DNA from: a virus | Taxonomy: Duplodnaviria > Caudoviricetes | Direction: 5' to 3' (one strand) | Virus record (IMG/VR): IMGVR_UViG_3300048031_000576 | Coordinates: 1 to 57,051 of that record | DNA: 57,051 bases | In this document: piece by piece, positions 2,417-47,129 of the stretch | Layout: every line of letters starts with the position of its first letter | Numbering within the stretch: position 1 is the first letter of the stretch | Program-made: the position numbers and the translations under genes | The notes under the pieces: generated by a model | Databases searched by the model: none | Seen by the model: the letters and a program-made list of their open reading frames with translations, nothing else | What the model was told of the DNA's origin: nothing

Positions 2417-2435
2417 AATTTGCGGGAGCCCGCCC

Positions 2436-4625
2436 ATGCCCAATAAGCCCTCGACGGAAAGCGTCCTTCGCCGCCACGCTGATTTAAACCCGCCACTGGG
2501 TGTTCCCGGTGGTTCCTGCTACCTCCAAGACAGGATCACGCGGAACGTCCAGAGCCCACGGAATCAACAGATTCTTTTGGATCGGCATCTTCGTCAGAAG
2601 GACAAGGGTGGCCGTGGGACCGTGTACGAGCAGGCGATCTACGGGGGGGATCACTCAGAGGGCCGTGTGAGAGGAACGTCGATCAAGCGGCTTGAGATCG
2701 ACCCCCATGCTCAGTACCGGATGGATCAAAAGGGTGTGAGCATGTCTCAGATCTACGCTCTGCTGAAGGATTTTCATGCTGCGTTTACAGAGGAGCGTCG
2801 GGACGGGTATGGGCCGTTGTTGAGAGGACTTCAACAACCAAACGAGTTCCGGTATGAGTATAAGGGGATTCGGGCGTACCTTCGTCCGTTGAGGCTCTAT
2901 GATCCCGTGAGATGGTCAGAAGAGAAAAGGAAGGGGAACAAGCCGGGGCTTGAATTGCATCTGAGGACTGTGCATCCCACCAGTACACGGGACTACACCC
3001 CCACGCCCCCTGACCTCTGCCCCGAAGCATCAAAGGTGGCTTCCCGGTATGCCTTGAAGATGGCTCCCGTTCCGGGTGTCAAGACTCTGGTGACGGACAA
3101 GTCTCAAAAGGGCTTGCCCACAGATACAGACAGAGAGAAGCAGGTAAATCTTCCCTTGCCAGGGTCAGCGACCCCTGGTGGGTCGGGTCGTGCGATCCCG
3201 CAGTTTTCGTACAACACCCCTGATTCGGGGTCCGATCTCAAGCCCCGAACATTGGGTATTCCCGGCGAGCAGTACGGTCATCCGTCGAACAACACATACA
3301 ACACGGTGACCCGCCGCGTCATCGAGAGCAGCAGCGGTCCCGTCTCAGATCTCAAGGCGTACCTCATGGCTCGGCATCGGCTCTACGAGGCAGAGGACTA
3401 TGATGCTCTTTTGGAGTCGATGGAGAACCCGAAGGAGGTTCGTCGTCTTGCTGGGTTGATCGGTGATGTAGACGAGTACCTGACGGACAAACGCCGTCCC
3501 TTAGATTCCCGGTATGATGGGGATGCCCTTACGTTGTTGGAAGAGGGTCGAGCGGTGATCCATCTGTCGGACGGGGGGTATTCACGACTCACGCTGGCGT
3601 TTGACATCCCCCATGTTCTGTGGATCGACCGAGGGCTTTCGTCTGCGAAGGTGGTGGAGCGTTGGGAGCGTACACGCGCAGCGTCCTCCAAGCGTACTCG
3701 CATCGCGAGTTCCCGGTGGCCGGGTGGCCGATATCCTGATGTGAAGTCCTACACGGATCATTTTGAGGTGGGCGACGAGGGCTATCCGGAGTGGTTTTTC
3801 GTGTCTCAAGGGAGCCTGAGTGCTGCACCTGACTATGGAACCTCGGACGCCGCGTTGCCACGCGGCAACGTGGCGTCTTCAGAGGATTCTGAGGAGGGTG
3901 TCGAGAAGGTCGCCTACAAGCGGAGGTGGCAAACAGGTCAACGTCAGCGGAGATCACGGGGGTCCGATAGGATCAAGCGGAAGCAGTACAACCGCCGAAA
4001 CAAGCAGAAGCGGAAAACACAGTCACGTCGGTGGCGTCAACGGAACAAGAACAAGCCCGCTTTCCGGCAGAGCGAGCGTCGTCGTCGTACACAGAACCGT
4101 ACTCGCAAACGGGCGAGCGTCTTGACGGTCCCTGATATCGCCTTCCTCATCGGTCCCGAACAGATGCTTGGGTATATCCACTCAATCTCCCCGATGAGTG
4201 GCATGGTCACCATTGAGTTGGACGAGACAAATGTGAGCCAGTTGGATTCACTGCCTGTGGAGTTGTTCCTCCGCATGGCCGTGTTCTTGACTGAGCAGGA
4301 TATTGATGCGTTCTATGATCTGGTGGACGTTGAGATTGGTCCCAGCGCGTATGCTGATCTGAACAAGCGGCAGGTTCGGCAATGCGCTTTTCGGTATGAC
4401 CGTGATCCCGACTCCGACGAGTTCAAGTCGGATTGCTTTGGCCTTACCGACGAGTACGAGTTGTCGTCCATGGGTGCGGATCAACTGGATTCCGTGGTCA
4501 CCCACTTAGTTCAGGGGTTCATTGAGGAGGGTCACGCCCGCTCTCAGACGGATGCTGACAACCCGGAGATTTCGGACGAGTACGACTCTCACCTCTACTA
4601 CGGAGAGGTCGATGTCAAGCGGTAA
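2436..4625 (+). CDS. Multidomain putative cargo protein with KVASRY tag, possible DUF4258/RelE-like RNase segment and Arg-rich tract
   Basis: 729-aa ORF; IDPHAQYRMDQKGV resembles the HA..RM motif of DUF4258-like proteins; KVASRY at 3033-3050; long R/K/Q-rich stretch. Confidence 0.65.
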   Translation: MPNKPSTESVLRRHADLNPPLGVPGGSCYLQDRITRNVQSPRNQQILLDRHLRQKDKGGRGTVYEQAIYGGDHSEGRVRGTSIKRLEIDPHAQYRMDQKGVSMSQIYALLKDFHAAFTEERRDGYGPLLRGLQQPNEFRYEYKGIRAYLRPLRLYDPVRWSEEKRKGNKPGLELHLRTVHPTSTRDYTPTPPDLCPEASKVASRYALKMAPVPGVKTLVTDKSQKGLPTDTDREKQVNLPLPGSATPGGSGRAIPQFSYNTPDSGSDLKPRTLGIPGEQYGHPSNNTYNTVTRRVIESSSGPVSDLKAYLMARHRLYEAEDYDALLESMENPKEVRRLAGLIGDVDEYLTDKRRPLDSRYDGDALTLLEEGRAVIHLSDGGYSRLTLAFDIPHVLWIDRGLSSAKVVERWERTRAASSKRTRIASSRWPGGRYPDVKSYTDHFEVGDEGYPEWFFVSQGSLSAAPDYGTSDAALPRGNVASSEDSEEGVEKVAYKRRWQTGQRQRRSRGSDRIKRKQYNRRNKQKRKTQSRRWRQRNKNKPAFRQSERRRRTQNRTRKRASVLTVPDIAFLIGPEQMLGYIHSISPMSGMVTIELDETNVSQLDSLPVELFLRMAVFLTEQDIDAFYDLVDVEIGPSAYADLNKRQVRQCAFRYDRDPDSDEFKSDCFGLTDEYELSSMGADQLDSVVTHLVQGFIEEGHARSQTDADNPEISDEYDSHLYYGEVDVKR

Positions 4626-7149
4626 CCATCGGTGGGCGTATGTGAAGGGTGACATCCGTTCCCCTCAGACCCCCGGAGGGCAGAACCGCCAGCCGCAGCG
4701 GAAGCAGACTCCGCAGGAGAGGTTGAAGCGGAAGCGGCGACATCAGCGGAACAAGGCTCGGGACAACCGAGATGCCCTGCGGCGTTACCACACCAAGTAC
4801 AAGAGGAAGCGGAAGATGACGCAGCGGAGAGAGGAGTACCGGGAGAACCCAGAGCGGTACGAGAGGAAGGCTCCACGGGAATATGAGCGCCCGGACAAGA
4901 CGGCTGTGGCGCAGCGGTACGCGGCTCGTCCGATTCCTGTGGACAAGGCACAACTCCGCAAGATCGCTCAGGGGCTTGTGGACGCGATGGTCGCCAAGGC
5001 TCGTAAAGCCGGGAATGGTAGCGGGTGGGACTACAGGCCGCTTCACGCATACAACAGCCGTAACGGTGTGACGGCGCAAGGCCCGAGCGTTCTCATTGAG
5101 AACCCCTTGGTCTACGGGTCCGGTTTTGTAGGCAAGCCTCTGACCATTCCTGTGTGGGGAGTGACCGCGAAACTGAGGAAAAGAGACCCCCGACGAATCC
5201 ACGTTGACACCCGACGAAGCCGTGTCCCCAGCGCATCATACGCAATCTGGGATGAGAGGAACCAGTGGATTGAGATTCGGTTCAACGCTCGTCTCAGTGG
5301 AGCGGAGTTGGAGGATTCCAAGACCGTAGACGATGTGTACAGCGTTCTTCTCCACGAGGTCACACACGCCACCGAGATGGTCATTGACCGCGCACTTGCT
5401 GAACGCGAAGCCAACCCAGATCGACCCACTCACACCAGCCACCGTCCCGATTACTACGACATCCCGGTTGAGGTGCGTGCTTTCATGCAACAGGTGGCAG
5501 ACGAAGTGGAAACCGCTGTCCGCTCTGGGGTTCCGTTCAGGCAAGCGTTGAAGGAGAGCCGATCTTGGCAGCGTGTGTCTCCCCGCATGAACCAGAAGAA
5601 TCTGAAGAAGATTATGAAGGGGGTCTACACCTACATCGAGGAACAGGGTCTTCCTGTTCGGACAGCGAGCCGCCTCTGGTATCATGGCTCCCCGAAGCGG
5701 TTTGAAGGCTTCAAGACCTACGAAGGCCACACCTTCGGCAAGGGGCCGTCCGAGGTGCCTCTTTTCTTCAGCCCCTCCAAGTCCTTCGCCAAGATGTACG
5801 CCACGGGTCCAGAGGGGACGATCTACGCCGCCCGGTTGACGTGGCGGAAGGTCTTTGACGGCGGGGACTTGTATCAGGATTCCCGATACTGGCCCCCGGA
5901 GTATGAAGACCTGACTCCAGAGGGCAAGACCCTGTACGACGACCTCGCTGATGGAAAGGTGTTCCCCGGTGTAGACGAGGACGACCTGCTTGACGGCTAC
6001 CCGAGCCTTTGGGCGCAGATTCTCCGCATGGACTACGACATCATCGAGGATGCGGCGTTCAAGCGTTGGCTCAAGAAGCACGGCTACGACGCTGCCTATG
6101 TCACAGGCGATGGGGAGCAGAACGTGTTTGTGTTCTCCCCGAATCAGGTTGAGATCGTTGAGGTGATGGGTGAGCATCCCGAGTGGTCCGGTGTCCGAAC
6201 TGCCGGTGACGTGATGCTGTACGACCAGCACAACCCGGCAAACAACGAGATCAAGCAGCCCGGTTCTGATGTGAACTACCGTGCGGTGGGTCCGACCACG
6301 TATGAAACCATACCGGATCAGAATCAGGGTGAGCCCCCCGGTAATCGCGTGCCCAACAGACAACTCGACGGAGTGCCCCCGGCGACCTCAAGGGTGATCC
6401 CAGAGCAGATGAAGGAAACCTTGAGGGACAACATGACCTACGTGAAGGGGTCGGCGCGTAAAACGCGGGAAAACCGGATCAGTAAGCACTTGGCACTGAA
6501 GAAGATCTACGAGCAGGCGCACGATCCCGAGGGGATTGAATACGGATCTGCTCATGTGATCTCTGATTGGGGGGATCGGCAGTGGTTGATGTCGTACCTC
6601 ACCTACACGGGCAAAGTACGAAAAGTGCTGGTCAGCGGTCATGTGACCGGACCGGGGCGGGTGTACTTAGCGGTGCTGCCGTTCAGTACCCGTCGAGCGG
6701 CTTTGCTCTCCGAGATCATGGGGAATTGCGGACCTAAGATCCGCGAGCGTGCTCGTGGTCTTCAGTTCAACAGGGTTCGGGTCAACCCCGATCAGGGACT
6801 CCTCTTGTACGACGTGCGAGGAAAGGATGGGGACGTTTACCGCGTGCGGCTCAAGGGGGAGCGAAAGGGCAACGTCAAAGCATTGGCGAAGATGCCCCTC
6901 AAAGTGTCTTGTTCATGCCCTGCTTTTCGTTGGCAGGGGCCTGAGCATTGGGCAAAGAAGAACAGGTACCTGTACGGTAAACCCGTGGGGTCCGCGTCCA
7001 AACCCGCAGTCCGTGATCCCGGAGGTAAGCACTGGGCGTGTAAACATGTGTACGCGGTTTTGGACGCAAAAACAGGGCTCCGCTTTGCGAGAGCGGAGCC
7101 CTATGTGGGTCGGGTAGTGTCCATTCACCGACAAAAGCGAGGGGAGTGA
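4612..7149 (+). CDS. Polyvalent-type protein: Arg-rich N-terminus, AVAQRY tag, zincin metallopeptidase, ART-like domain, SWIM zinc finger
   Basis: GGAG RBS before ATG 4612; HEVTH...EVRAF (zincin); WYHGS...FFS...YA (ART-like); CSCPAF...CKH (SWIM). Confidence 0.75.
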   Translation: MSSGNHRWAYVKGDIRSPQTPGGQNRQPQRKQTPQERLKRKRRHQRNKARDNRDALRRYHTKYKRKRKMTQRREEYRENPERYERKAPREYERPDKTAVAQRYAARPIPVDKAQLRKIAQGLVDAMVAKARKAGNGSGWDYRPLHAYNSRNGVTAQGPSVLIENPLVYGSGFVGKPLTIPVWGVTAKLRKRDPRRIHVDTRRSRVPSASYAIWDERNQWIEIRFNARLSGAELEDSKTVDDVYSVLLHEVTHATEMVIDRALAEREANPDRPTHTSHRPDYYDIPVEVRAFMQQVADEVETAVRSGVPFRQALKESRSWQRVSPRMNQKNLKKIMKGVYTYIEEQGLPVRTASRLWYHGSPKRFEGFKTYEGHTFGKGPSEVPLFFSPSKSFAKMYATGPEGTIYAARLTWRKVFDGGDLYQDSRYWPPEYEDLTPEGKTLYDDLADGKVFPGVDEDDLLDGYPSLWAQILRMDYDIIEDAAFKRWLKKHGYDAAYVTGDGEQNVFVFSPNQVEIVEVMGEHPEWSGVRTAGDVMLYDQHNPANNEIKQPGSDVNYRAVGPTTYETIPDQNQGEPPGNRVPNRQLDGVPPATSRVIPEQMKETLRDNMTYVKGSARKTRENRISKHLALKKIYEQAHDPEGIEYGSAHVISDWGDRQWLMSYLTYTGKVRKVLVSGHVTGPGRVYLAVLPFSTRRAALLSEIMGNCGPKIRERARGLQFNRVRVNPDQGLLLYDVRGKDGDVYRVRLKGERKGNVKALAKMPLKVSCSCPAFRWQGPEHWAKKNRYLYGKPVGSASKPAVRDPGGKHWACKHVYAVLDAKTGLRFARAEPYVGRVVSIHRQKRGE

Positions 7150-7319
7150 TGTTTGAGCCGTGTCCCGTATGTGGTTGTGACCCGTGTGACTGCGAGGATT
7201 ACTCGGGTTCCTTGAGCATCTTGTTCGCCGCGCCTTCCACGGGGAGTCTTCCTATCGCTGCATCCAGCAGGGTCACACCACGGATTGCTTCGGTGATTTC
7301 GTTGAAGGCTCGCTTGTAG
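7149..7319 (+). CDS. Possible small Cys-rich peptide (CPVCGCDPCDC)
   Basis: TGATG stop/start overlap with the upstream gene; 56 aa; overlaps the convergent gene by 121 nt. Confidence 0.3.
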   Translation: MFEPCPVCGCDPCDCEDYSGSLSILFAAPSTGSLPIAASSRVTPRIASVISLKARL

Positions 7320-7525
7320 TCAGGCTCCATTCGGACCTCGGTTTTGCCCGCGTGTCCGTGGATTGCGTTGATCTCTCCGATGTTGTCGTAGATCGTGATG
7401 GAGGGATGCTCAGACAACCAGAATAGAGCAACCCGTCCGTTGTCGGCCACGAAGCCTTGAGCGACCCGCCCGGTGCCACTGATGCCGGACTCGTCCTCGT
7501 TTCTCCAGAGGTAAAACACCTTCAT
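7199..7525 (-). CDS. Conserved phage hypothetical protein
   Basis: F.L.R..D.SG.SGTG.VA.G....G...W...S...Y......IHGH.G.T pattern recalled from a widespread phage family; ATGA coupling to the upstream gene. Confidence 0.75.
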   Translation of the reverse strand: MKVFYLWRNEDESGISGTGRVAQGFVADNGRVALFWLSEHPSITIYDNIGEINAIHGHAGKTEVRMEPDYKRAFNEITEAIRGVTLLDAAIGRLPVEGAANKMLKEPE

Positions 7526-7947
7526 GTGATATGACCCTTCATTAATGGGTATTCAGACACTTCTGTTTCCGTCCACGGGGGAGATCTGAGAATATGGTAG
7601 CCCCTTTGTTGTAGCAGACCCTCTGCAACCTTTTTGGCATTCGAAAGGGAGTCAAGGGGTCCGATTTCTTCCCCCGAATCCATAAAGACGAACCAGTCCG
7701 AGCCTATCTCTGGCTGACACACCTCTACGTGATATTCTTCGGTCGCGGTATTGTATTGAAATCCTCTCATGGTGGGGTATACCAGTCGATCCCCCTTCAT
7801 AACGGGTGGGGGAAGTATCTTTTCCCTCCAGCGTGGTTCCAAGAGACCTCTTCTTAGGATCTCTCGGCGTAGAATCGCGAGATTCACAGGGTCATCCAGG
7901 ATCCCCGCCAGTGTCAGGTAGCGCGGGCTGACCCCTTCCTCACTCAT
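7522..7947 (-). CDS. Hypothetical protein
   Basis: 141-aa ORF overlapping both neighbours in a minus-strand operon. Confidence 0.65.
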   Translation of the reverse strand: MSEEGVSPRYLTLAGILDDPVNLAILRREILRRGLLEPRWREKILPPPVMKGDRLVYPTMRGFQYNTATEEYHVEVCQPEIGSDWFVFMDSGEEIGPLDSLSNAKKVAEGLLQQRGYHILRSPPWTETEVSEYPLMKGHIT

Positions 7948-8170
7948 GGCTTTCGCCTAAGAGGTGCGAGATCGACGGGGTCACCTCATAGAGAACGATT
8001 GTTCTACCCAATACATTCTTCCATTGTCGGACACGCTCGCGGCTGACGGTAAAAGCAGTCGCGATTTCCTGGTTGTTGTCGTTTGTTTTGAATCTTTCCA
8101 AGAGATTATGGAAGGCATCCTCTCCGTACTTTCGGATTAGATTCTCAGCAACCTTTTCTGGTGGGGTCAT
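7940..8170 (-). CDS. Small helix-turn-helix protein (sigma region 4-like)
   Basis: NQEIATAFTVSRERVRQW matches the sigma70 r4-type HTH pattern. Confidence 0.7.
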   Translation of the reverse strand: MTPPEKVAENLIRKYGEDAFHNLLERFKTNDNNQEIATAFTVSRERVRQWKNVLGRTIVLYEVTPSISHLLGESHE

Positions 8171-8218
8171 ATGAGTCCCTTTGAGGGTGGGGGGGTGTTT
8201 TTAGCGTACCCCCTCACG

Positions 8219-8629
8219 TTATTCCTCGGTGTATCCCGCGTGAAGAACCTCACGCCCTTCAGGATCCTTGATCCAAGAGTCTTCTTCCATGTGGATGTGA
8301 CCCGTCCACCATCCGGGCTGACGCTCCGGTATAGGCGTTCCGTCCTCAAAACGGAAGACTCTTCTTGGCTCCCTCTTGAAGATCTCCAGAGCCTTTCTCT
8401 CCCGCTCCTCATAGGAGAGAGCCTCATCGCAGAGGATCAAGGTGGCGGCATCTTCCAGGTCAGACAAATCCTCTTTGATTTGTCTGACCGTGCCCGGAAG
8501 GTTCTCGGGAGAGAGGTTTACTGAGGGGAGTGCCTTCCACCATGCCTCCAACTGGGCAGGGGAAAACTCCGTCTCCCAGTACCATGTTTTCCAGCCGTAT
8601 TCTTCTTCCAGTAGAACGGTGGCTATCAT
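8219..8629 (-). CDS. Hypothetical protein, paralog of 8626-8997
   Basis: Shares WETxFSPAQLEAWWK and HxHxEEDSxxKDPxG with its neighbour. Confidence 0.75.
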   Translation of the reverse strand: MIATVLLEEEYGWKTWYWETEFSPAQLEAWWKALPSVNLSPENLPGTVRQIKEDLSDLEDAATLILCDEALSYEERERKALEIFKREPRRVFRFEDGTPIPERQPGWWTGHIHMEEDSWIKDPEGREVLHAGYTEE

Positions 8630-8997
8630 ATAAAATTCCCCTGTGGATCTTTGAGGTAAGAGTCTTCCTCAAGGTGCTGGTGTGCCGTCCAAAATTCGGC
8701 GGCACGGCGGACCGGTTCTCCGGTATCGCAGAAACGGTACAAAAACGGGGCGCGTTTGTACCACTCGGCCCACATGGCGAACCGCTCCTCGTCCGATTTG
8801 GACGGGAACTCCTTCAAGAGTTCCTCCTTCTTCAACTCGGACGGGCGGGGGTCTTCCTCAACCTCCCGCATGTCCTCCAGGGGGAATCCTGGACCCTCGT
8901 CCTTCCACCATGCCTCCAACTGGGCAGGGGAAAAATCGGTCTCCCAAAGGAAGACCTCGTATCCGTACTCATGGATTACCCAAACAGACACACCCAT
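8626..8997 (-). CDS. Hypothetical protein, paralog of 8219-8629
   Basis: AAGGA RBS before ATG 8997; same two motifs. Confidence 0.75.
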   Translation of the reverse strand: MGVSVWVIHEYGYEVFLWETDFSPAQLEAWWKDEGPGFPLEDMREVEEDPRPSELKKEELLKEFPSKSDEERFAMWAEWYKRAPFLYRFCDTGEPVRRAAEFWTAHQHLEEDSYLKDPQGNFI

Positions 8998-9053
8998 GTT
9001 GATTTCCTTTGCCCCCTGTCGTTTGGGGGGCGTTGTTGGCTTCACCCTATAGG

Positions 9054-9084
9054 TAAGAAAGGAGCCCGGATCGGTACCCCCCCC
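9054..9084 (-). promoter_or_regulatory. Putative promoter motif GGGGGGT-N9-GGCTC-N3-TCYTA (copy 1)
   Basis: Minus strand GGGGGGT ACCGATCCG GGCTC CTTTCTTA, upstream of gene 8997. Confidence 0.55.
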
Positions 9085-9086
9085 AG

Positions 9087-9272
9087 TCAAAAACGTTCCA
9101 CGTCACGGTACACGGCACCGTACACGGCATCGTACACGGCCCAGGACACGGCACGGTCAACGGCATCGTCCACGGCATCTTCCACGGCACCGTCCACGGC
9201 ACGGTACACGGCCCAGTACACGGCCCCCCACACGGCACGGTTCACGGCACGGCTCACGGCAACGTTAGTCAT
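9087..9272 (-). CDS. AVxx mini-protein A12 (61 aa, terminal unit, ends DVERF)
   Basis: MTNVAVSRAVNRAVWG...; GGGAG RBS; 8-nt overlap with the previous stop. Confidence 0.7.
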   Translation of the reverse strand: MTNVAVSRAVNRAVWGAVYWAVYRAVDGAVEDAVDDAVDRAVSWAVYDAVYGAVYRDVERF

Positions 9273-9459
9273 GGTTGATCTCCCACACGGCAGCGTCCAC
9301 GGCCCAGTACACGGCACGGTTCACGGCACGGTTCACGTCACGCCACACGGCACTCCTCACGCCACGGCTCACGGCAACGTGTACGTCACGGCTCACGCCA
9401 CCGCTCACGGCACAGTACACGGCTTCGATCACGGCATCCTCCACGGCAACGTTAGTCAT
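9265..9459 (-). CDS. AVxx mini-protein A11 (64 aa)
   Basis: MTNVAVED...AVWEINHD. Confidence 0.7.
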   Translation of the reverse strand: MTNVAVEDAVIEAVYCAVSGGVSRDVHVAVSRGVRSAVWRDVNRAVNRAVYWAVDAAVWEINHD

Positions 9460-9667
9460 GGTTGATCTCCCACACGGCATCGTCCACGGCCCAGTACACG
9501 GCACGGTTCACGGCACGGTTCACGGCACGGTTCACGTCACCGGTCACGGCACGCCTCGCGGCAACGTGTACGTCACGGTACACGGCACGCCTCACGGCAA
9601 CGATCACGGCAACTTTCACGTCACGCCACACGGCACGGTTCACGGCACGGTTCACGGCGTTAGTCAT
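9452..9667 (-). CDS. AVxx mini-protein A10 (71 aa)
   Basis: MTNAVNR...AVWEINHD. Confidence 0.7.
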   Translation of the reverse strand: MTNAVNRAVNRAVWRDVKVAVIVAVRRAVYRDVHVAARRAVTGDVNRAVNRAVNRAVYWAVDDAVWEINHD

Positions 9668-9863
9668 GGTTGACCTCCCACACGGCATCGTCCACGGCCC
9701 AGGACACGGCACCGTCCACGGCACGGTACACGGCACCGGTCACGGCACGCCTCGCGGCAACGTGTACGTCACGGTACACGGCACCGTTCACGGCAACGAT
9801 CACGGCAACTTTCACGTCACGCCACACGGCACGGTACACGGCCCAGGACACGGCGTTAGTCAT
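9660..9863 (-). CDS. AVxx mini-protein A9 (67 aa)
   Basis: MTNAVSW...AVWEVNHD. Confidence 0.7.
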   Translation of the reverse strand: MTNAVSWAVYRAVWRDVKVAVIVAVNGAVYRDVHVAARRAVTGAVYRAVDGAVSWAVDDAVWEVNHD

Positions 9864-10059
9864 GGTTGATCTCCCTCACGGCAACGTGTACGCCACGCCA
9901 CACGGCATCGTCCACGGCTTCGTCCACGGCACGGTACACGGCAAGGTACGCGGACCACGACCCGGCACGCCTCACGGCAAGGTACACGGCCCAGGACACG
10001 GCAAGGTACACGGCATCGTCCACGGCACGCCTCGCGGCACGGTTCACGGCGTTAGTCAT
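9856..10059 (-). CDS. AVxx mini-protein A8 (67 aa)
   Basis: MTNAVNR...AVREINHD. Confidence 0.7.
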   Translation of the reverse strand: MTNAVNRAARRAVDDAVYLAVSWAVYLAVRRAGSWSAYLAVYRAVDEAVDDAVWRGVHVAVREINHD

Positions 10060-10231
10060 GGTTGATCTCCCTCACGGCAACGTGTACGCCACGCCACACG
10101 GCATCGTCCACGGCATCGTCCACGGCAGCGTCCACGGCATCGTCAACGGCATCGTCAACGGCACGGTACACGGCAAGGTACACGGCAGCGTACACGGCAC
10201 GGTTCACGGCACCGTACACGGCGTTATTCAT
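10052..10231 (-). CDS. AVxx mini-protein A7 (59 aa)
   Basis: MNNAVYG...AVREINHD. Confidence 0.7.
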   Translation of the reverse strand: MNNAVYGAVNRAVYAAVYLAVYRAVDDAVDDAVDAAVDDAVDDAVWRGVHVAVREINHD

Positions 10232-10415
10232 GGCTGACCTCCCACACGGCACGGTTCACGGCACGGTTCACGGTCCAGTACACGGCACCGTCAACGGCAG
10301 CGTCAACGGCAACGTGTACGCCACGCCACACGGCATCGTCCACGGCAGCGTCCACGGCATCGTCAACGGCATCGTCAACGGCACGGTACACGGCAAGGTA
10401 CACGGCGTTAGTCAT
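10224..10415 (-). CDS. AVxx mini-protein A6 (63 aa)
   Basis: MTNAVYL...AVWEVSHE. Confidence 0.7.
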   Translation of the reverse strand: MTNAVYLAVYRAVDDAVDDAVDAAVDDAVWRGVHVAVDAAVDGAVYWTVNRAVNRAVWEVSHE

Positions 10416-10647
10416 GGTTGATCTCCCTCACGGCAACGTGTACGCCACGCCACACGGCATCGTCCACGGCATCGTCCACGGCAGCGTCCACGGCATCGTC
10501 AACGGCATCGTCAACGGCATCGTCAACGGCACGGTACACGGCAAGGTACACGGCATCGTCAACGGCCCAGTACACGGCACGGTCCACGGCACCGTCAACG
10601 GCAGCGTCAACGGCCCACCACACGGCACCGTACACGGCGTTAGTCAT
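10408..10647 (-). CDS. AVxx mini-protein A5 (79 aa)
   Basis: MTNAVYG...AVREINHD. Confidence 0.7.
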   Translation of the reverse strand: MTNAVYGAVWWAVDAAVDGAVDRAVYWAVDDAVYLAVYRAVDDAVDDAVDDAVDAAVDDAVDDAVWRGVHVAVREINHD

Positions 10648-10882
10648 GGTTGATCTCCCTCACGGCAACGTGTACGCCACGCCACACGGCATCGTCCACG
10701 GCATCGTCCACGGCATCGTACACGTCAAGCCTCACGGCATCGTTCACGGCACGGTTCACGGCAAGGTACACGGCCCAGGACACGGCATCGTTCCCGGCAA
10801 GGTACACGGCCCAGGACACGGCACGGTTCACGGCAAGGTACACGGCCCAGGACACGGCTTCGTTCACGGCATCTTTAGTCAT
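10640..10882 (-). CDS. AVxx mini-protein A4 (80 aa)
   Basis: MTKDAVNE...AVREINHD. Confidence 0.7.
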   Translation of the reverse strand: MTKDAVNEAVSWAVYLAVNRAVSWAVYLAGNDAVSWAVYLAVNRAVNDAVRLDVYDAVDDAVDDAVWRGVHVAVREINHD

Positions 10883-11034
10883 GGTTGATCCTCCCGCACG
10901 GCATCGTTCACGGCATCGCTCACGGCACCGTACATGGCACCGGACACGGCCCCCCACACGGCCCAGGACACGGCTTCGAACACGGCATCGGACACGGCAA
11001 ACCACACGGCTTCGCTCACGGCATCTTTAGTCAT
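10879..11034 (-). CDS. AVxx mini-protein A3 (51 aa)
   Basis: MTKDAVSEAVWF...AVREDQP; ends in an ATGA overlap. Confidence 0.65.
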   Translation of the reverse strand: MTKDAVSEAVWFAVSDAVFEAVSWAVWGAVSGAMYGAVSDAVNDAVREDQP

Positions 11035-11114
11035 GGTTGATCCTCCCGCACGGCATCGTTCACGGCATCGCTCACGGCCCAGTACACGGCATCGATCACG
11101 GCATCTTTAGTCAT
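11031..11114 (-). CDS. AVxx mini-protein A2 (27 aa)
   Basis: MTKDAVIDAVYWAVSDAVNDAVREDQP; ends in an ATGA overlap. Confidence 0.6.
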   Translation of the reverse strand: MTKDAVIDAVYWAVSDAVNDAVREDQP

Positions 11115-11319
11115 GGTTGACCTCCCGCACGGCTTCGTCCACGTCACGGTACACGGCATCGTTCACGGCCCAGTACACGGCATCGATCACGGCACCGAAC
11201 ACGGCACGGTCAACGGCAGCGTCCACGGCATCGTCCACGGCCCAGGACACGTCACGGTTCACGGCATAGATCACGGCAACACCCACGGCGTGCCGCGATT
11301 GTTGTGTCTGTGTCCCCAT
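11107..11319 (-). CDS. AVxx mini-protein A1 (70 aa, leader unit with a unique N-terminus)
   Basis: AAGGA RBS; MGTQTQQSRHAVGV...AVREVNHD. Confidence 0.7.
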   Translation of the reverse strand: MGTQTQQSRHAVGVAVIYAVNRDVSWAVDDAVDAAVDRAVFGAVIDAVYWAVNDAVYRDVDEAVREVNHD

Positions 11320-11341
11320 GTTCAATTTCCTTTTCTGTCTC

Positions 11342-11377
11342 TATAGGAGGTGAGCCTCGATCTACACCCCCCTTCAC
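11342..11377 (-). promoter_or_regulatory. Putative promoter motif (copy 2) upstream of array 1
   Basis: GTGAA GGGGGGT GTAGATCGA GGCTC ACCTCCTATA. Confidence 0.6.
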
Positions 11378-11404
11378 ACAGGAAAGCCCCCCGCGTTCGT
11401 TTTC

Positions 11405-11437
11405 CGGTGACTCGTCTATACCTACGGCTGGGGTAAG
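11405..11437 (+). promoter_or_regulatory. Putative late promoter
   Basis: CGGTG actcgt CTAT N11 GGGTAAG. Confidence 0.6.
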
Positions 11438-11458
11438 GTCACCGGAGGAGCCCCCCGC

Positions 11459-12196
11459 ATGGCAGCACAGATCCGAAGCAGCATCCCTGCGAAGCCGACG
11501 ATTGACAATGCCAGTCGGGATGATCTCGTGGTTGGGGATGTGATCACGCTTGAAGCGGTGCCCCCTGCAATCGGGACAACATGGGCATGGACACTGGTTT
11601 TCGTTCCAGAGGGCAGCACTGCTGTGCTGACTCCCCCCGCTTCCGCAAGCACAGCAGGGCCGGTCACATTCACTGCTGATCTGGCTGGACCCTACCTCGT
11701 CCGGCTCACTGTGGATGCGGGACTTCCGACCGAGGACACCCAGTATGTCCGACTGAGGGCACTGACTTCTACGCTGGGGCTGAAGTTGGTGGCTGCTGGG
11801 GAACGGCGCGACTCCACGGGCGTGATCCCAGTCGATGTGGACTCTGAGGGCTGGGCCAACGAACAGAACTACAACTTCCAGCGGCTCGAAACCGCCATCG
11901 CATCGGCTGGTGGTGCTTGGTCGCTGGTGAGCGTTGCTGGGGTCACCCACACTGCCACGGATGGTGAGTTCATCGTTATCACTGCCACCACAACGGTCAT
12001 CACACTCCCTGCACCAGTGCTCAACCACCGCGTTGCATTCAAGTTGGCTGTGGTTCCCGTTGACGTGCAGGTCAAGACCAGCGGTGCTGGGGTTCTGATC
12101 GACGGCACTGACTACTCAGGGGTTGGGCTTCCCCTCACAGCACAGTGGGAGCAGTTCAACGTGATCTCGGACGGCTCAAACTGGTTCATCTTCTGA
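11459..12196 (+). CDS. Virion structural protein (Ig/PKD-like N-terminus, fibre-like C-terminus)
   Basis: WAWTLVFVPEGS...FTADLAGPYLVRLTV is PKD-like; paralog of 13810-14385. Confidence 0.7.
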   Translation: MAAQIRSSIPAKPTIDNASRDDLVVGDVITLEAVPPAIGTTWAWTLVFVPEGSTAVLTPPASASTAGPVTFTADLAGPYLVRLTVDAGLPTEDTQYVRLRALTSTLGLKLVAAGERRDSTGVIPVDVDSEGWANEQNYNFQRLETAIASAGGAWSLVSVAGVTHTATDGEFIVITATTTVITLPAPVLNHRVAFKLAVVPVDVQVKTSGAGVLIDGTDYSGVGLPLTAQWEQFNVISDGSNWFIF

Positions 12197-12203
12197 GGTT
12201 GAC

Positions 12204-13805
12204 ATGGCTTACTCCCCCACAGTTCGCAGCACCGTAGACACAGGCAATAGCACCACCGCTGCTCTTGGAGCGGCTGGTGTTTTTCCGGGTTCCTGGAACG
12301 ACATCGAAGTCTGGAACGGGATCAGTGTCATTCTCAATGGCACTGCGGCCAGCACCGCTCCCGGCACACTGGTGATGCAGTTCAGCCACGACGGGGTCAC
12401 GGTCCTCAAGGCAATCACGGTCGCGGTGGGGGACGTGGTTTCGGCCTCGCCTCGGACGTTGGGCGTCCTCGCCAAGTATTTCCGGGTGGTCTACACAAAC
12501 GGCGCACAAGCGCAGATCACGTTCAGCCTCCAGACGATGCTCCACTCGTCGCAGGTCAACCCCGTATCCCGGCTGGATGACGGTTTTGACAATGTAGACG
12601 TGACCAACGTGCGGGCTGTGCCCTCGGGCCAGCAGCCGGACGGTGACTATGTGAACGGAAAAGCGGACGGCACCGCATTCTCCGACTCGACCCCGCTGGT
12701 GGCGGGTGACACGTACAACTCCGGGTGGGTTGACGCTGACGGGTGGGTCACCATCGAGTTGTTCTTGACCTCTGACCAGTTGTCGGCGGTCAGCGGAATC
12801 TCAGTCCAGTACACCGACGACGTGCAGGGTGCCGCAACGGTACGCGCCACGGACAACTACACCTTCACACAGAACGACCTTGACCGGGGCTACCTCGCCC
12901 TGACCTTTCCGACGCGGCTCGATGGGTTTCGTATCCAGTACACCAATGGGTCCGCCCCACAGGGTTCGTTCTTCATCCAAGCGGATCTGCGGACCAACAG
13001 CAGCCCTCTTCGGACGGATTCTTCGGGGGCGTTGATCACAGGCGACTTCACCCTTGAGGTCGCGCTCGGCAACATCCCCAACCACACCAACGGCACCAAG
13101 TTCGGTGCCGTTGGGGACATCGACAACGCGGATCCTACCCCCGTCACGGTTTGGCGTGCGGGAGATAGCGGCTCTGCTTTTCGCCGCAAGACCTTCGCCA
13201 CGGTAGCCGCGAATCTCTGGGTTGCCAGTACAGACAACGCTGACACCGCTGACATCACTCTGATCATCAACGACGCGAGCAACACCCTCGTCACGGCCAC
13301 CGTGACCCTGACGGGTCAGACCCCGGTAGACACAGGGGTGAGCGCCCTCGACTGCAACACAGCCTATGTCAGTGGCAACGACCAGACGCTCGCCGGGGAT
13401 GTGTGGGTCACCAACGCGAACAACTTCGTCGTACCCGGAGTTGGCGGGGGTGTGCCGAATGACCCCACGGAAGTTCAAGCCTACATCCCGGCAGCGGACG
13501 GGCGAACCCAGCAGGCTGTGTACCGAGTCCCGGCAAACACCACCATGGTCATCCGGGAGTTCCACGCCTCAATGCTGGCGGGCACGGGACAAGCGGCGGC
13601 TAAGGTCAAAGTGCTTGTATGCAAGCCCGGTGAGTCTTGGTACACGTTGAGGCCATACCTGATGTCATCCAACTTCTCCTTAGAGCGCCCCGAACTCATC
13701 GCGCTCCCAGCGGGAACCTTCGTTGAAGTTGTGCTTGACGACGTGGCCTCAAACAACACCGACACCACGGTGATCTTCAACTATGACCTGATTGTGGGAG
13801 CATAA
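12204..13805 (+). CDS. Putative virion structural protein
   Basis: 533 aa, beta-rich composition, two internal repeats (F.G.W.D / Y.SGWVD), in the structural operon. Confidence 0.7.
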   Translation: MAYSPTVRSTVDTGNSTTAALGAAGVFPGSWNDIEVWNGISVILNGTAASTAPGTLVMQFSHDGVTVLKAITVAVGDVVSASPRTLGVLAKYFRVVYTNGAQAQITFSLQTMLHSSQVNPVSRLDDGFDNVDVTNVRAVPSGQQPDGDYVNGKADGTAFSDSTPLVAGDTYNSGWVDADGWVTIELFLTSDQLSAVSGISVQYTDDVQGAATVRATDNYTFTQNDLDRGYLALTFPTRLDGFRIQYTNGSAPQGSFFIQADLRTNSSPLRTDSSGALITGDFTLEVALGNIPNHTNGTKFGAVGDIDNADPTPVTVWRAGDSGSAFRRKTFATVAANLWVASTDNADTADITLIINDASNTLVTATVTLTGQTPVDTGVSALDCNTAYVSGNDQTLAGDVWVTNANNFVVPGVGGGVPNDPTEVQAYIPAADGRTQQAVYRVPANTTMVIREFHASMLAGTGQAAAKVKVLVCKPGESWYTLRPYLMSSNFSLERPELIALPAGTFVEVVLDDVASNNTDTTVIFNYDLIVGA

Positions 13806-19810: not shown

Positions 19811-19978
19811 CTAACTCACGGCATCGTTCACGGCACGCCTCACGGCACGCCTCACGGCTGCGCTCACGGCCCACCACACGGCACCGGTCACGGCACGCCT
19901 CACGGCATCGTTCACGGCACGGTCCACGGCCCAGGACACGTCACGGTACACGGCACGCCTCACGGCAACGTTAGTCAT
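19811..19978 (-). CDS. AVxx mini-protein B11 (55 aa, terminal unit)
   Basis: MTNVAVRR...AVNDAVS. Confidence 0.7.
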   Translation of the reverse strand: MTNVAVRRAVYRDVSWAVDRAVNDAVRRAVTGAVWWAVSAAVRRAVRRAVNDAVS

Positions 19979-20168
19979 GGTTGATCTCCCACACGGCTTC
20001 GTCCACGGCACGGTACACGGCACGGCTCACGGCAGCGTTCACGGCACGCCTCACGGCAAGGTCCACGGCATAGATCACGGCACCGTACACGGCTTCGTCC
20101 ACGGCACCGTACACGTCACGCCACACGGCACCGGTCACGGCACCGTTATTCATGGCATCGTTATTCAT
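19971..20168 (-). CDS. AVxx mini-protein B10 (65 aa)
   Basis: MNNDAMNNGAVTG...AVWEINHD. Confidence 0.7.
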   Translation of the reverse strand: MNNDAMNNGAVTGAVWRDVYGAVDEAVYGAVIYAVDLAVRRAVNAAVSRAVYRAVDEAVWEINHD

Positions 20169-20406
20169 GGCTGACCTCCTCGATCACGGCACGCCTCACG
20201 GCACGCCTCACGGCACGCCTCACGGCTGCGCTCACGGCCCAGTACACGGCACCGTTCACGGCACGCCTCACGGCCCAGTACACGGCATCGTTCACGGCAC
20301 GGTCAACGGCATCGTCCACGTCACGGTACACGGCACCGCTCACGGCAGAGTCAACGGCACGCCTCACGGCCCAGTACACGGCACCGGTCACGGCACCGTT
20401 ATTCAT
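20161..20406 (-). CDS. AVxx mini-protein B9 (81 aa)
   Basis: MNNGAVTG...AVIEEVSHE. Confidence 0.7.
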   Translation of the reverse strand: MNNGAVTGAVYWAVRRAVDSAVSGAVYRDVDDAVDRAVNDAVYWAVRRAVNGAVYWAVSAAVRRAVRRAVRRAVIEEVSHE

Positions 20407-20596
20407 GGCTGACCTCCTCGTTCACGGCACGCCTCACGGCACGCCTCACGGCACGCCTCACGGCATCGTTCACGGCACGGTTCACGGCAACGTTCACGGC
20501 AACGATCACGGCAACTTTCACGTCACGGTTCACGGCACCGAACACGTCACGCCACACGGCACCGGTCACGTCACGCCACACGGCATCGTTAATCAT
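20399..20596 (-). CDS. AVxx mini-protein B8 (65 aa)
   Basis: MINDAVWR...AVNEEVSHE. Confidence 0.7.
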   Translation of the reverse strand: MINDAVWRDVTGAVWRDVFGAVNRDVKVAVIVAVNVAVNRAVNDAVRRAVRRAVRRAVNEEVSHE

Positions 20597-20774
20597 GGCT
20601 GACCTCCTCGATCACGGCACCGTTCACGTCACGGTACACGGCAGCGGTCACGGCAAGGTACACGGCCCAGGACACGGCATCGGGCACGGCACGGTACACG
20701 GGACCGGACACGGCACTCCTCACGGCACGGTACACGGCCCAGGACACGTCACGGTTCACGGCAACGTTAATCAT
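20589..20774 (-). CDS. AVxx mini-protein B7 (61 aa)
   Basis: MINVAVNR...AVIEEVSHD. Confidence 0.7.
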   Translation of the reverse strand: MINVAVNRDVSWAVYRAVRSAVSGPVYRAVPDAVSWAVYLAVTAAVYRDVNGAVIEEVSHD

Positions 20775-20985
20775 GGTTGATCTCCCACACGGCAGCGTTC
20801 ACGGCACTCCTCACGGCACCGCTCACGGCACTCAACACGGCACGGTTCACGGCAGCGGTCACGGCAAGGTACACGGCCCAGGACACGGCATCGGGCACGG
20901 CACGGTACACGGGACCGGACACGGCACTCAACACGGCACGGTTCACGGCCCAGGACACGTCACGGTTCACGGCAACGTTAATCAT
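20767..20985 (-). CDS. AVxx mini-protein B6 (72 aa)
   Basis: MINVAVNR...AVWEINHD. Confidence 0.7.
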   Translation of the reverse strand: MINVAVNRDVSWAVNRAVLSAVSGPVYRAVPDAVSWAVYLAVTAAVNRAVLSAVSGAVRSAVNAAVWEINHD

Positions 20986-21160
20986 GGTTGATCTCCCACA
21001 CGGCACCGTTCACGGCACGCCTCACGGCAAGGTCCACGGCAGCGTCCACGGCACGGTCAACGGCATCGTCCACGGCATCTTCCACGGCAAACCACACGGC
21101 TTCGGACACGGCCCAGTACACGCCACTCAACACGGCACGGTCCACGGCATCGTTAGTCAT
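20978..21160 (-). CDS. AVxx mini-protein B5 (60 aa)
   Basis: MTNDAVDR...AVWEINHD. Confidence 0.7.
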   Translation of the reverse strand: MTNDAVDRAVLSGVYWAVSEAVWFAVEDAVDDAVDRAVDAAVDLAVRRAVNGAVWEINHD

Positions 21161-21230
21161 GGTTGATCTCCCACACGGCATCGGACACGGCCCCCCACAC
21201 GGCATCGTCAACGGCTTCATCGTTAGTCAT
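21153..21230 (-). CDS. AVxx mini-protein B4 (25 aa)
   Basis: MTNDEAVDDAVWGAVSDAVWEINHD. Confidence 0.6.
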   Translation of the reverse strand: MTNDEAVDDAVWGAVSDAVWEINHD

Positions 21231-21465
21231 GGTTGATCTCCCACACGGCAGCGTTAACGGCACTCCTCAAGGCACCGCTCACGGCAGCGTCAACGGCAAA
21301 CCGCACGGCAGCGGTCACGTCACTGTACACGGCCCAGGACACGGCATCGGGCACGGCACGGTACACGGGACCGGACACGGCACGGTACACGGCAGCGTTA
21401 ACGGCACTCCTCAAGGCACCGCTCACGGCCCAGGACACGTCACGGTTCACGGCAACGTTAATCAT
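21223..21465 (-). CDS. AVxx mini-protein B3 (80 aa)
   Basis: MINVAVNR...AVWEINHD. Confidence 0.7.
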   Translation of the reverse strand: MINVAVNRDVSWAVSGALRSAVNAAVYRAVSGPVYRAVPDAVSWAVYSDVTAAVRFAVDAAVSGALRSAVNAAVWEINHD

Positions 21466-21640
21466 GGTTGATCTCCCACACGGCAGCGTCAACGGCACTC
21501 CTCACGGCACCGCTCACGGCACCGTGAACGGCACGCCTCACGGCAACGTCAACGGCAGCGTTCACTCCACTGTACACGGCACGCCTCACGGCATCGTGTA
21601 CGTCACGGCTCACGGCACGTCTCACGGCATCGTTAGTCAT
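21458..21640 (-). CDS. AVxx mini-protein B2 (60 aa)
   Basis: MTNDAVRR...AVWEINHD. Confidence 0.7.
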   Translation of the reverse strand: MTNDAVRRAVSRDVHDAVRRAVYSGVNAAVDVAVRRAVHGAVSGAVRSAVDAAVWEINHD

Positions 21641-21746
21641 GGTTGATCTCCCACACGGCATCGTCCACGGCACGCCACACGGCAAGGTCCACGGCATAGA
21701 TCACGCGGTCTTCGAAGTTAGCCGTGTAGTCCGGCTTCCTCAGCAT
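21633..21746 (-). CDS. AVxx mini-protein B1 (37 aa, leader unit with a unique N-terminus)
   Basis: GGGGAG RBS; MLRKPDYTANFEDRVIYAVDLAVWRAVDDAVWEINHD. Confidence 0.6.
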   Translation of the reverse strand: MLRKPDYTANFEDRVIYAVDLAVWRAVDDAVWEINHD

Positions 21747-22404
21747 CGGGAACTCCCCCGACCCGAAGACCTCCAAGGGTTCCGATAAGTTTGCCCGCAA
21801 CGTTGGGATCCACTTTAAAAAGAAACTCGCCATCCTCTCCAACGGCTTCGATGCTTTCGGGATCTTGCATATTAAAACCGCGAATCCAGCAGTATGGTAT
21901 CGGCATGTGCCCCACCACATCATCCCACGTCAGCGGAACGATATCCGTGACCCACGGGGTGTACTTCATGGTGTCCCCGGTGGTCTTTATCTTGACTACC
22001 TCGTCACTTGACGCCCAAGTAGTATGCGTGCCTTCCTTGAACCCTAAGCGAGTTCCCGCCACCCAAAAAACGGTCCCTTCAATGCCATCTGAGACTCTCC
22101 GGACGCGGTGACCTTTTCGGGGTAGGCCCCGTCGGGTGATTTTGACGTGATCCGACAAGAGTTGCACCCACCCTCTTTTCGGACCCACCCCTGGTTCCAG
22201 GCCGGGGTATATGGGGTGTATTTTTTCCTTGTCTTCGTAGAGGGGCTTCTGTGACCCGTCTTGGGATATCCCCACGCGGTCGTGCCCGATCCACACAAGG
22301 GTTCCCCGCAGCCCGTCGGGTCCGACCACCTCTGCCCCTATTTTTATCGGGAGTAATTGCTCGCGTGCTTCCCGTGGGCTCAGGGCGGGAGTGTTCTCAG
22401 CCAT
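21718..22404 (-). CDS. Hypothetical protein with two SH3/KOW-like repeats, first gene of the array-2 operon
   Basis: GGAGG RBS; KIGAEVVGPDGLRGTLVWIGHDRVGI and RKGHRVRRVSDGIEGTVFWVAGTRLGF. Confidence 0.7.
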   Translation of the reverse strand: MAENTPALSPREAREQLLPIKIGAEVVGPDGLRGTLVWIGHDRVGISQDGSQKPLYEDKEKIHPIYPGLEPGVGPKRGWVQLLSDHVKITRRGLPRKGHRVRRVSDGIEGTVFWVAGTRLGFKEGTHTTWASSDEVVKIKTTGDTMKYTPWVTDIVPLTWDDVVGHMPIPYCWIRGFNMQDPESIEAVGEDGEFLFKVDPNVAGKLIGTLGGLRVGGVPDAEEAGLHG

Positions 22405-22424
22405 GGTCCTTCCTCCAAGACTCA

Positions 22425-22460
22425 AATAAGAGATGAGCCCCGACCGGAACCCCCCTTCAC
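22425..22460 (-). promoter_or_regulatory. Putative promoter motif (copy 3) upstream of the array-2 operon
   Basis: GTGAA GGGGGGT TCCGGTCGG GGCTC ATCTCTTATT. Confidence 0.6.
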
Positions 22461-47069: not shown

Positions 47070-47089
47070 TCCCTTGCCACTTCTGCTCT

Positions 47090-47129
47090 CCCCCCACCTC
47101 AGTATAAATCCCCCCACCTCAGTATAAAT
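47090..47129 (+). repeat. Perfect 20-bp tandem duplication immediately before a start codon
   Basis: CCCCCCACCTCAGTATAAAT x2. Confidence 0.85.

Follow-up and report, generated by a model that had tools for sequence, protein, structure and literature searches.

Two minus-strand arrays of predicted coupled mini-genes built from a 12-nt Ala-Val-x-x repeat in a marine phage genome fragment

Described relatives of the repeat

The gp54 protein of mycobacteriophage Tweety is encoded by a repeated 12-bp unit in which positions 1-6, 9 and 12 are invariant and positions 7, 8, 10 and 11 are variable, a pattern which its authors read in 2007 as selection for variation (PMC2884959). According to a further report, gp54 is a counter-defence factor against gp29 and gp30 of the prophage Phrann, and escape mutants gain or lose repeats (PMC9262239). 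A repeat of the same kind was analysed here in a stretch of 57,051 bp of viral DNA (Duplodnaviria; Caudoviricetes), which is the whole of IMG/VR record IMGVR_UViG_3300048031_000576 and is called the window below. The window holds two arrays, A and B, of 12-nt words of the form Ala-Val-x1-x2 (AVxx words, read in the AV frame), which lie in 23 short overlapping open reading frames (mini-ORFs) on the minus strand. The best explanation of the whole, to which a probability of approximately 0.6 was given, is that the arrays are two operons of 12 and 11 coupled mini-genes, each encoding a different peptide that consists almost wholly of (Ala-Val-x-x)n.

The fetched gp54 sequence consisted of (AAxx)48 between unique ends and had no Pfam family. 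Gp54, with its relatives Che8 gp57 and PMC gp51, shares with the window a 12-bp unit in which positions 1-6 are fixed and positions 7, 8, 10 and 11 vary. Third codon positions 9 and 12, described as invariant in gp54, are near-fixed in the window, with C at position 9 in 223 and T at position 12 in 232 of 296 canonical xVxx words, a count restricted to words with V at position 2 of each tetrapeptide. Copy number and word content of gp54, Che8 gp57 and PMC gp51 vary between related phages, as they do in the window system, and gp54 and the window arrays both lie in a phage accessory setting. The differences are that the scaffold is Ala-Ala in gp54 and Ala-Val in the window (260 of the 296 words start with A); that gp54 is a single ORF whose repeats are flanked by unique N- and C-terminal domains, whereas the 23 window mini-ORFs are free and without such domains; that no sequence similarity was detected between them outside the repeat; and that the host of Tweety is a mycobacterium while the window comes from a marine metagenome.

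A scan of IMG/VR for five GCCGTG hexamers at 12-nt spacing found 46 loci, all with the repeat in a single frame and ORF and none with CCATGAnTAA, the junction core of the window arrays. By flank motifs, 27 of the 46 loci belonged to one family consisting of an N-domain, (AVxx)n and a C-terminal domain, and the latter was DUF6745 (PF20530) in all three that were tested with Pfam. The mean entropy of positions 7-12 over 24 DUF6745-type loci was 1.21, 0.83, 0.14, 0.13, 0.68 and 0.16 bits, respectively, and positions 9 and 12 were near-fixed in loci L039 and L014 too. The DUF6745 proteins (L039, L014, L002 and L005) have the same GCCGTG hexamer, AV frame and fixed third positions as the window and share its combinatorial vocabulary (AVDS, AVGS, AVRG, AVDD and others); however, they are single ORFs with flanking domains and no coupling cassettes, and the window arrays are the reverse. 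PF20530 was absent from the six-frame translation of the window at an expected value (E) of ≤10, the neighbouring genes gave no match to it, and the hhalign probability was below 1%. A tblastn search with L014 did not reach Tweety. Judged by sequence, the repeat module of the window is kin to the modules of gp54 and of the DUF6745 proteins, and gp54 would represent a second flanking-domain family using the same kind of module.

The DUF6745 AVxx family was widespread in phages (IMG/VR loci L002-L046, e.g. L039 at 3506-5182 and L014 at 2429-5089), with approximately 130 units in L014. No paper found in a full-text literature search mentions DUF6745, and the family is apparently undescribed. A PADLOC match inside the low-complexity repeat of L014 was taken as compositional.

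Smaller proteins with the same words were also identified. One mini-peptide used as query in an exhaustive HMMER search matched 134 proteins, mostly of 300-600 aa and approximately 35 of them small; a word-index search with the mini-peptide at 9660-9863, which had returned no homologue of 36-118 aa, was thus a false negative. The small relatives are complete at 64-117 aa, with an M-x-x-N type start, xVxx words and a D-P-x-H-P-A-L-Q-D-F-L tail. A profile search at E ≤ 1e-5 returned 223 small AVxx proteins (P0043-P0247, e.g. P0078, P0050, P0062, P0098 and P0147), all unnamed and without a Pfam or NCBIfam family. Members of approximately 150 aa are two fused modules, and several members appear to lie on one contig. 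The window peptides resemble this family in free-standing size (60-120 aa in the family), the M-x-x-N start and the words AVYW, AVNR, AVDR and AVYR, and the family profile matched the mini-ORFs with E between 1.2e-18 and 6e-3, the matches beginning at profile positions 3-16. No match passed position 69 of 85, and the HPALQDFL tail conserved in the family was absent from all peptides of the window and of L055, an independent contig described below. The tail was also absent from five records (four of the five IMG/VR relatives of the phage and a 485-kb phage record), and the tail pattern gave no match in IMG/VR and seven unrelated matches in GTDB. A tblastn search of phages with the small family gave no match, look-ups with P0098 returned only spurious (AVNG)n runs, and the mini-peptides themselves had only weak matches in Pfam and PHROGs (E ≥ 0.008).

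Diversity-generating retroelements have a nearby reverse transcriptase, a template/variable repeat pair and adenine-derived variation. As in their targets, variation in the window is concentrated on the first two bases of NNC-like codons and creates no stops. Unlike these elements, the window has no template/variable repeat pair and its variation is not restricted to adenine-derived positions; the reverse transcriptase family PF00078 was absent from the window, a record rated 13% complete.

The first-pass annotation of array A, made from the sequence alone, had named no described system with this architecture. That statement does not hold for the repeat itself, since a 12-nt A-x-x-x word system was described for gp54 in 2007 (PMC2884959) and both the DUF6745 proteins and the small AVxx proteins exist. 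The first level, the 12-nt repeat system, was therefore already known, and only the second level, the chopping of the repeat into coupled mini-genes, appears undescribed. Repeats of the form A-[A/V]-x-x are now found in three architectures, namely between gp54-type domains, before DUF6745 and as free small proteins, which links a mycobacteriophage counter-defence curiosity to wider hypervariable repeats in environmental phages and puts many natural variants on hand for working out the binding partner of the repeat.

Array anatomy, strand and coupling

Tandem Repeats Finder identified the 12-nt tandem repeat of array A at 9099-11266 (178.6 copies, score 520) and a second one, array B, at 19816-21634 (151.1 copies). 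Array B was absent from the first-pass annotation, so that the original observation was confirmed and its size roughly doubled. The two-level repeat proposed for 9087-11319 was reproduced by Tandem Repeats Finder and by the junction cores, the ends of the 12 ORFs of array A agreed exactly with those first given, and the statement that no two peptides are identical and none has an internal stop held for all 23 mini-ORFs of the two arrays. The positions of these and other features are as in Table 1. Array-A mini-ORFs follow the plan M-T/N-N/K, (A-V-x-x)n and W/R-E-I/V-N/S-H-D/E. Over both arrays there are 3-10 non-repeat residues at either end of a mini-ORF, and the endings are W/R-E-I/V-N/S-H-D/E, REDQP, ERF or AVS. 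The first ORF of array B probably starts at the ATG at 21746 behind GGGGGAG, where it would overlap the end of the upstream gene.

Table 1. Positions of the arrays, their mini-ORFs and neighbouring features in the window
Feature	Position	Strand	Description
Array A	9087..11319	minus	12 overlapping mini-ORFs, 27-80 aa
Array A ORFs 1-4	11319-11107, 11114-11031, 11034-10879, 10882-10640	minus	70, 27, 51 and 80 aa
Array A ORFs 5-8	10647-10408, 10415-10224, 10231-10052, 10059-9856	minus	79, 63, 59 and 67 aa
Array A ORFs 9-12	9863-9660, 9667-9452, 9459-9265, 9272-9087	minus	67, 71, 64 and 61 aa
Array B	19811..21746	minus	11 overlapping mini-ORFs, 25-81 aa
Array B ORFs 1-4	21746 or 21704-21633, 21640-21458, 21465-21223, 21230-21153	minus	
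Array B ORFs 5-8	21160-20978, 20985-20767, 20774-20589, 20596-20399	minus	
Array B ORFs 9-11	20406-20161, 20168-19971, 19978-19811	minus	
Example cassette	9265..9292	minus	GCCGTG-TGGGAG-ATCAACC-ATGACTAA
Divergent intergenic region	11320..11458		presumed array-A promoter region, between array A (minus) and gene 11459-12196 (plus)
124-aa gene	8626..9000	minus	directly downstream of array A; ATG 8997-8999 behind AAAGGAAAT
136-aa gene	8219..8629	minus	40%-identity paralogue of the 124-aa gene, co-oriented
141-aa ORF	7522..7947	minus	last of the minus-strand block; no family match
Terminator-like hairpin	7072..7104	minus	strong (13 pairs then T-run); would close the array-A operon
228-aa gene	21718..22404	minus	heads the array-B operon; ATG 22404 behind GGAGGAAGG
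28-nt motif GGGGTWCCGRTCSGGGCTCMTYTCTTAY, copy 1	9053..9080	minus	between array A and the 124-aa gene
28-nt motif GGGGTWCCGRTCSGGGCTCMTYTCTTAY, copy 2	22426..22453	minus	leader of the 228-aa gene

Within the 296 words, positions 1-6 are GCCGTG with an entropy of at most 0.6 bit, positions 9 and 12 have entropies of 0.94 and 0.90 bits, and positions 7, 8, 10 and 11 vary at 1.55-1.76 bits. D, Y, N, S, R and W are frequent at x1, as are R, D, G, E and W at x2. Asp is encoded by GAC at x1 and by GAT at x2 without exception. A total of 55 distinct x1x2 pairs was found, a wider vocabulary than the small one first listed.

On the minus strand the junction core CCATGAnTAA was counted 22 times, with 11 in each array, and on the plus strand it did not occur; the 22nd ATGAnTAA, at 20153, is a nested in-frame duplicate. 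In the 28-nt cassette at 9265..9292, one example of the 21 coupling cassettes, a word is followed by GGAG, a spacer of 6-7 nt, the ATG of the next ORF and, 8 nt in, the TAA of the previous ORF. The cassette was first called constant; it has several sequence variants, and two of the cassettes, each longer by one base, give the ending ...REDQP and still keep an ATGA start-stop overlap. The overlap is 8 nt in 19 cassettes and 4 nt (ATGA) in two. GGAG or GAGG stands 6-7 nt before the ATG in 21 of the 22 window junctions and in all eight junctions of L055, and the large genes of the phage use GGAG 6-10 nt before their starts. The W-E-I-N-H-D ending appears to be largely set by nucleic-acid signals (tGGGAG, spacer, cATGAc and TAA) and was not counted as a peptide motif because it is dictated by the cassette and is replaced by REDQP where the cassette has an extra base.

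The layout of GGAG, ATG and stop supports the minus-strand coding frame and coupled hand-off claimed at first, and suggests that the mini-ORFs are translated and coupled. Coupled overlapping genes in prokaryotic operons likewise have a start 8 or 4 nt before the end of the upstream ORF and a Shine-Dalgarno (SD) sequence inside it. Unlike in usual coupling, one cassette is here iterated 10-11 times in a row between paralogous mini-genes, and the coupling is predicted; no case of iterated coupling through one repeated cassette was found in a full-text literature search. Taken together, the anatomy and coding model of the arrays were considered likely to be correct.

The cassette pattern was absent from IMG/VR and GTDB genomes and was found in one independent metagenome contig, L055 (1510 nt). 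This contig holds eight complete mini-ORFs and a partial one, of 25-68 aa and nine in a row, with other words in the same layout. It shares only 23 40-mers with the window and is partly syntenic with array B, in that its 25-aa ORF and its 'LSGVYW...AVDLAVRR' ORF are recognisably orthologous to array-B neighbours with an extra mini-gene between them.

The arrays are very probably read on the minus strand in the AV frame, because of the spacing of GGAG in the cassette, the minus-strand gene blocks, an AV frame that is fixed by flanks elsewhere and the stronger profile matches on that strand. Both arrays belong to blocks of minus-strand genes, each beginning at a divergent intergenic region, and the block of array A ends at a strong terminator. 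The GCCGTG-N6 repeat in L039 and L014 is read in the AV frame as fixed by their non-repeat flanks. A profile of 18 small AVxx proteins gave 25 matches to the arrays on the minus strand (best E 1.2e-18) and five on the plus strand (best E 5.5e-9). Several frames are open on either strand because of the repeat, and ATG..TGA overlaps occur on the plus strand too, since CATG is palindromic.

A plus-strand reading of the arrays, giving (H-G-x-V)n or (T-A-x-x)n peptides joined by ATG-GNT-TGA overlaps, would agree with the longest ORFs over the arrays, which are on that strand (123-156 aa), as are most genes of the window, and would place the variation of positions 7 and 10 at third codon positions, the usual sign of purifying selection. 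Codon adaptation did not separate the two strands (0.78 in the AV frame and 0.75 in the antisense HG frame, with a gene range of 0.69-0.80). Stop depletion against column shuffles was strongest in the AV frame (0 observed and 18.7 expected) and was also found in two plus-strand frames (3 vs 13.5 and 2 vs 9.3); it is weak evidence because a restricted vocabulary alone can produce stop-poor frames. The plus-strand reading is nevertheless extremely improbable. No GGAG stands ahead of the plus-strand ATGs, where the upstream sequence is CACGGC..GTTAGTC, in contrast to 21 of 22 minus-strand ATGs; the fixed third positions recur where flanking domains set the AV frame and in Tweety gp54 (PMC2884959); the plus-strand profile matches are far weaker; and the plus-strand ORFs continue antisense into neighbouring minus-strand genes. 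The strand argument from GTG/GTT swaps in the first-pass annotation, silent in the AV frame and not in the HG frame, was correct but symmetrical and does not decide the strand, as D/N/Y/H variation of NAC codons at x1 is silent in the plus-strand HGxV frame. As the wrong strand carries the longest ORFs over the arrays, routine annotation probably misses the 23 mini-genes.

The arrays could instead act as DNA or RNA, for example as a protein-binding repeat field, an RNA decoy or an antitoxin mimic, with incidental ORFs. The conserved third codon positions would then be a nucleotide-level constraint, all six frames are stop-poor from composition, and no RNA run was present among the sequencing runs holding 7400-12400. 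Against this, GGAG, its spacing, the ATG and the overlapping stop are retained despite indels in 29 cassettes from two independent sequences, and the homologous repeat elsewhere is unambiguously protein-coding. Rfam gave no family in the window at gathering score, no tRNA was found there, and two array segments folded no better than shuffles (z +1.25 and -0.29). Such a role was considered highly improbable.

Highly improbable as well is that each array is one long repeat protein, either made through programmed +1/+2 frameshifts at every junction or left as a decayed giant gp54-like or DUF6745-like gene, even though the relative L014 carries approximately 130 units in one ORF and the AV frame continues after each junction with a shift of one or two bases. 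Unlike random damage, the junctions are conserved start-stop cassettes bearing an SD sequence, and L055 retains the same cassettes. Judged from sequence, the P-site GAC before TAA would lack good +1 re-pairing, and neither the N-domain nor DUF6745 was found in the window.

Repeat evolution, assembly support and the predicted peptides

Exact blocks as long as 119 nt recur within the arrays, and there are higher-order periods of 184-196 nt; both point to whole mini-genes having been duplicated. The blocks that A and B have in common did not exceed 43 nt. The repeat units differ by whole words. Positions 7, 8, 10 and 11 accounted for 83 of the 121 differences between best paralogues, and positions 9 and 12 for 18. 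This word pattern is as expected from homogenisation by recombination or slippage combined with selected diversity at x1 and x2, and suggests diversifying selection. The origin by slippage and duplication put forward at first agrees with the duplicated mini-genes, the long exact blocks and the units differing by whole words. Fixed synonymous sites beside variable non-synonymous sites make the arrays a clean natural case of concerted evolution with selection for diversity.

The blocks shared within and between arrays could also mean that the arrays store word cassettes, which would recombine into a tetrapeptide-repeat gene expressed from the missing approximately 87% of the genome (CheckV completeness of the record was 13%), the peptides themselves being secondary. 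Escape mutants of Tweety that arise through changes in repeat number (PMC9262239) would fit such a store. However, no expression locus is known, silent cassettes would have no need of 21 ribosome-binding sites with start codons, and the records of five relatives of the phage (45-297 kb) are without any AVxx run, so that a store of this kind was considered very unlikely.

Assembly support differed between the borders and the interior of the arrays. The borders were identical in Logan contigs of four runs from four studies. The arrays themselves were covered only as pieces of approximately 100-150 nt in all four runs, and no contig spanned an array. Contigs of all four runs have 9176 joined to 11188, so that 2011 nt are skipped; the shorter side of this joint has 54 nt. 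Many other joints skip or go back, and the joints in array A may reflect additional arrays in other parts of the genome, variants in the population or artefacts of the repeat graph. It is accordingly conceivable, and was judged unlikely, that the architecture is real while the exact order and number of words and mini-genes is partly a product of assembly. The short Logan pieces with such joints and the exact internal repeats of up to 119 nt speak for this. The independent 1510-nt contig with nine consecutive mini-ORFs in the same layout and the bridging of both array-A borders in the same way across independent runs speak against it, and ordinary paired reads should be able to span repeats of ≤119 nt.

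For the peptides themselves, one was modelled. The 79-aa peptide was predicted by AlphaFold2 from its single sequence as one helix over residues 2-78, with a confidence (predicted local distance difference test, pLDDT) of 92.4, and this peptide is accordingly predicted to be a single long alpha-helix. Ala-rich sequences are readily called helical. Hydrophobicity had a period of 4.0 residues (power of 123-261 at 90 degrees vs 0.4-22 at 100 degrees), and the word order was not set for a 3.6-residue face (mean z of approximately 0 over 20 peptides). Since the period is 4.0 and not 3.6, the Ala/Val stripe would wind round an alpha-helix. The amphipathic 4-residue helical periodicity first ascribed to the peptides therefore stands for the period, and for a helix in the one modelled peptide, but not for an amphipathic face. 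The net charge of the peptides ranged from -14 to +6.

In the proposed working of the coupled mini-genes, each array would be covered by a minus-strand transcript. A ribosome ending one mini-ORF would stand 8 nt past the next ATG, with GGAG just upstream, and would restart there, so that all members of an array would be made together. Slippage or unequal exchange of 12-nt units and the duplication of entire mini-genes would drive the evolution of the DNA, homogenising the scaffold and the silent sites with x1/x2 diversity retained, and the cassette would cut the repeat into separate peptides instead of embedding it between globular domains. A possible role, put forward tentatively because of the analogy with gp54, the position in accessory islands and the composition of the variable positions, is that the peptides form a repertoire of variable helical surfaces binding host proteins, plausibly components of defence. 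The decoy or inhibitor role towards host defence suggested at first would be in line with the counter-defence activity of gp54, the one relative that has been characterised (PMC9262239). More doubtful is the specific form of this proposal, a germline combinatorial repertoire in which two dozen helical peptides made simultaneously would block different alleles or kinds of host defence proteins and would be renewed by slippage and mini-gene exchange. If true, coupled mini-genes would be a distinct strategy of many fixed binders beside the single tunable protein of gp54 type, and if the peptides are binders they would offer a compact natural scaffold for peptide libraries.

Several results count against the coupled mini-gene model or its proposed role, among them the codon adaptation and the plus-strand stop depletion given above. 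The 4.0-residue period gives no classical amphipathic helix, and the repeat region of a full-length DUF6745 relative was of low confidence in AlphaFold2 (pLDDT 27-41). The window peptides lack the flanking domains of gp54 and of the DUF6745 proteins as well as the tail of the small family, so that transfer of function from any of these is weak. One of the eight complete L055 mini-ORFs has a 1-nt frameshift. In addition, the five phage relatives, searched as whole records, had no (Ala-Val-x-x)x5 run and the arrays are therefore dispensable for the phage group; a 485-kb phage record was also without an AVxx run. The word order within the arrays rests on one assembly, as short-read contigs break inside them with many alternative joints, and no RNA run was among those holding 7400-12400.

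Occurrence and genomic surroundings

The phage is present in seawater; the stretch 7400-12400 was found in 20 DNA runs from 10 studies, mostly of seawater, and with the phage common in such data sets test material exists. Genes of the window encode a family-A DNA polymerase, a DnaB-like helicase, an SNF2 helicase and baseplate-like proteins, and several ORFs span 1100-1800 aa. The closest polymerase among GenBank phages had 45.7% identity and came from the 485-kb record, named 'uncultured phage', while relatives reached through structural genes were contigs of 45-297 kb rated 9-67% complete. On account of the CheckV completeness, this polymerase relative and the large contigs of the relatives, the window is probably a piece of a genome of approximately 440 kb belonging to a very large marine phage. 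Seven array ORFs (four minus-strand and three plus-strand) were not among approximately 15 billion proteins in an exact look-up, and blastn of array A against GenBank phages gave only one chance-like match of 100 nt.

The place of array B is taken in L061 by ordinary small genes, and L061, which has no array, carries a 33%-identical homologue of the 228-aa gene in opposite orientation. Together with the relatives lacking AVxx runs, this makes the arrays lineage-specific cargo of accessory islands between conserved structural genes. Two L061 genes in the gap syntenic with array B, at 6467-7135 and 7217-7924 (plus strand), have a common N-terminus ...KRLRRILAQEGLTKTA.

The paralogous 124-aa and 136-aa genes downstream of array A share a W-x-E-T-[DE]-F-S-P-A-Q-L-E-A-W-W-K motif and matched no family in Pfam, PHROGs or PADLOC. 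The flanking genes at 21718-22554 and 8626-9000 had no relatives in IMG/VR, and the ESM Atlas returned only unnamed clusters or scores below 0.9 for two neighbouring genes. No sigma-70-like site was found in the divergent intergenic region at 11320..11458. The 28-nt motif GGGGTWCCGRTCSGGGCTCMTYTCTTAY had exactly two matches in the window and no match in any of 100 shuffles. Each array operon has one copy, which precedes the start of a non-repeat gene (at 8997 or 22404) by 21-53 nt, and the motif could be a shared leader, processing or regulatory element.

Beside the array-A island, the plus-strand ORF at 4522-7149 (875 aa) matched ART-PolyVal, the ADP-ribosyltransferase of polyvalent proteins, at E 1.7e-7, just above the Pfam cut-off. 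On the other side, the patch at 11875-12300 was dense in substitutions in Logan contigs of three of the four seawater runs. It covers the end of the gene at 11459-12196 and the start of the gene at 12204-13805, and Logan contigs showed a 447-nt replacement between 11875 and 11966 with identical flanks. The patch resembles a region of a probable structural gene that is hypervariable in the population. Between the ORFs at 19-2079 and 2436-4625, positions 2172-2222 hold 2.8 copies of an 18-nt tandem repeat with 93% matches. Finally, a perfect 20-nt direct repeat, unique in the window, lies in two copies at 47089-47128 on the plus strand and ends 2 nt before the ATG of the ORF at 47131-47994.

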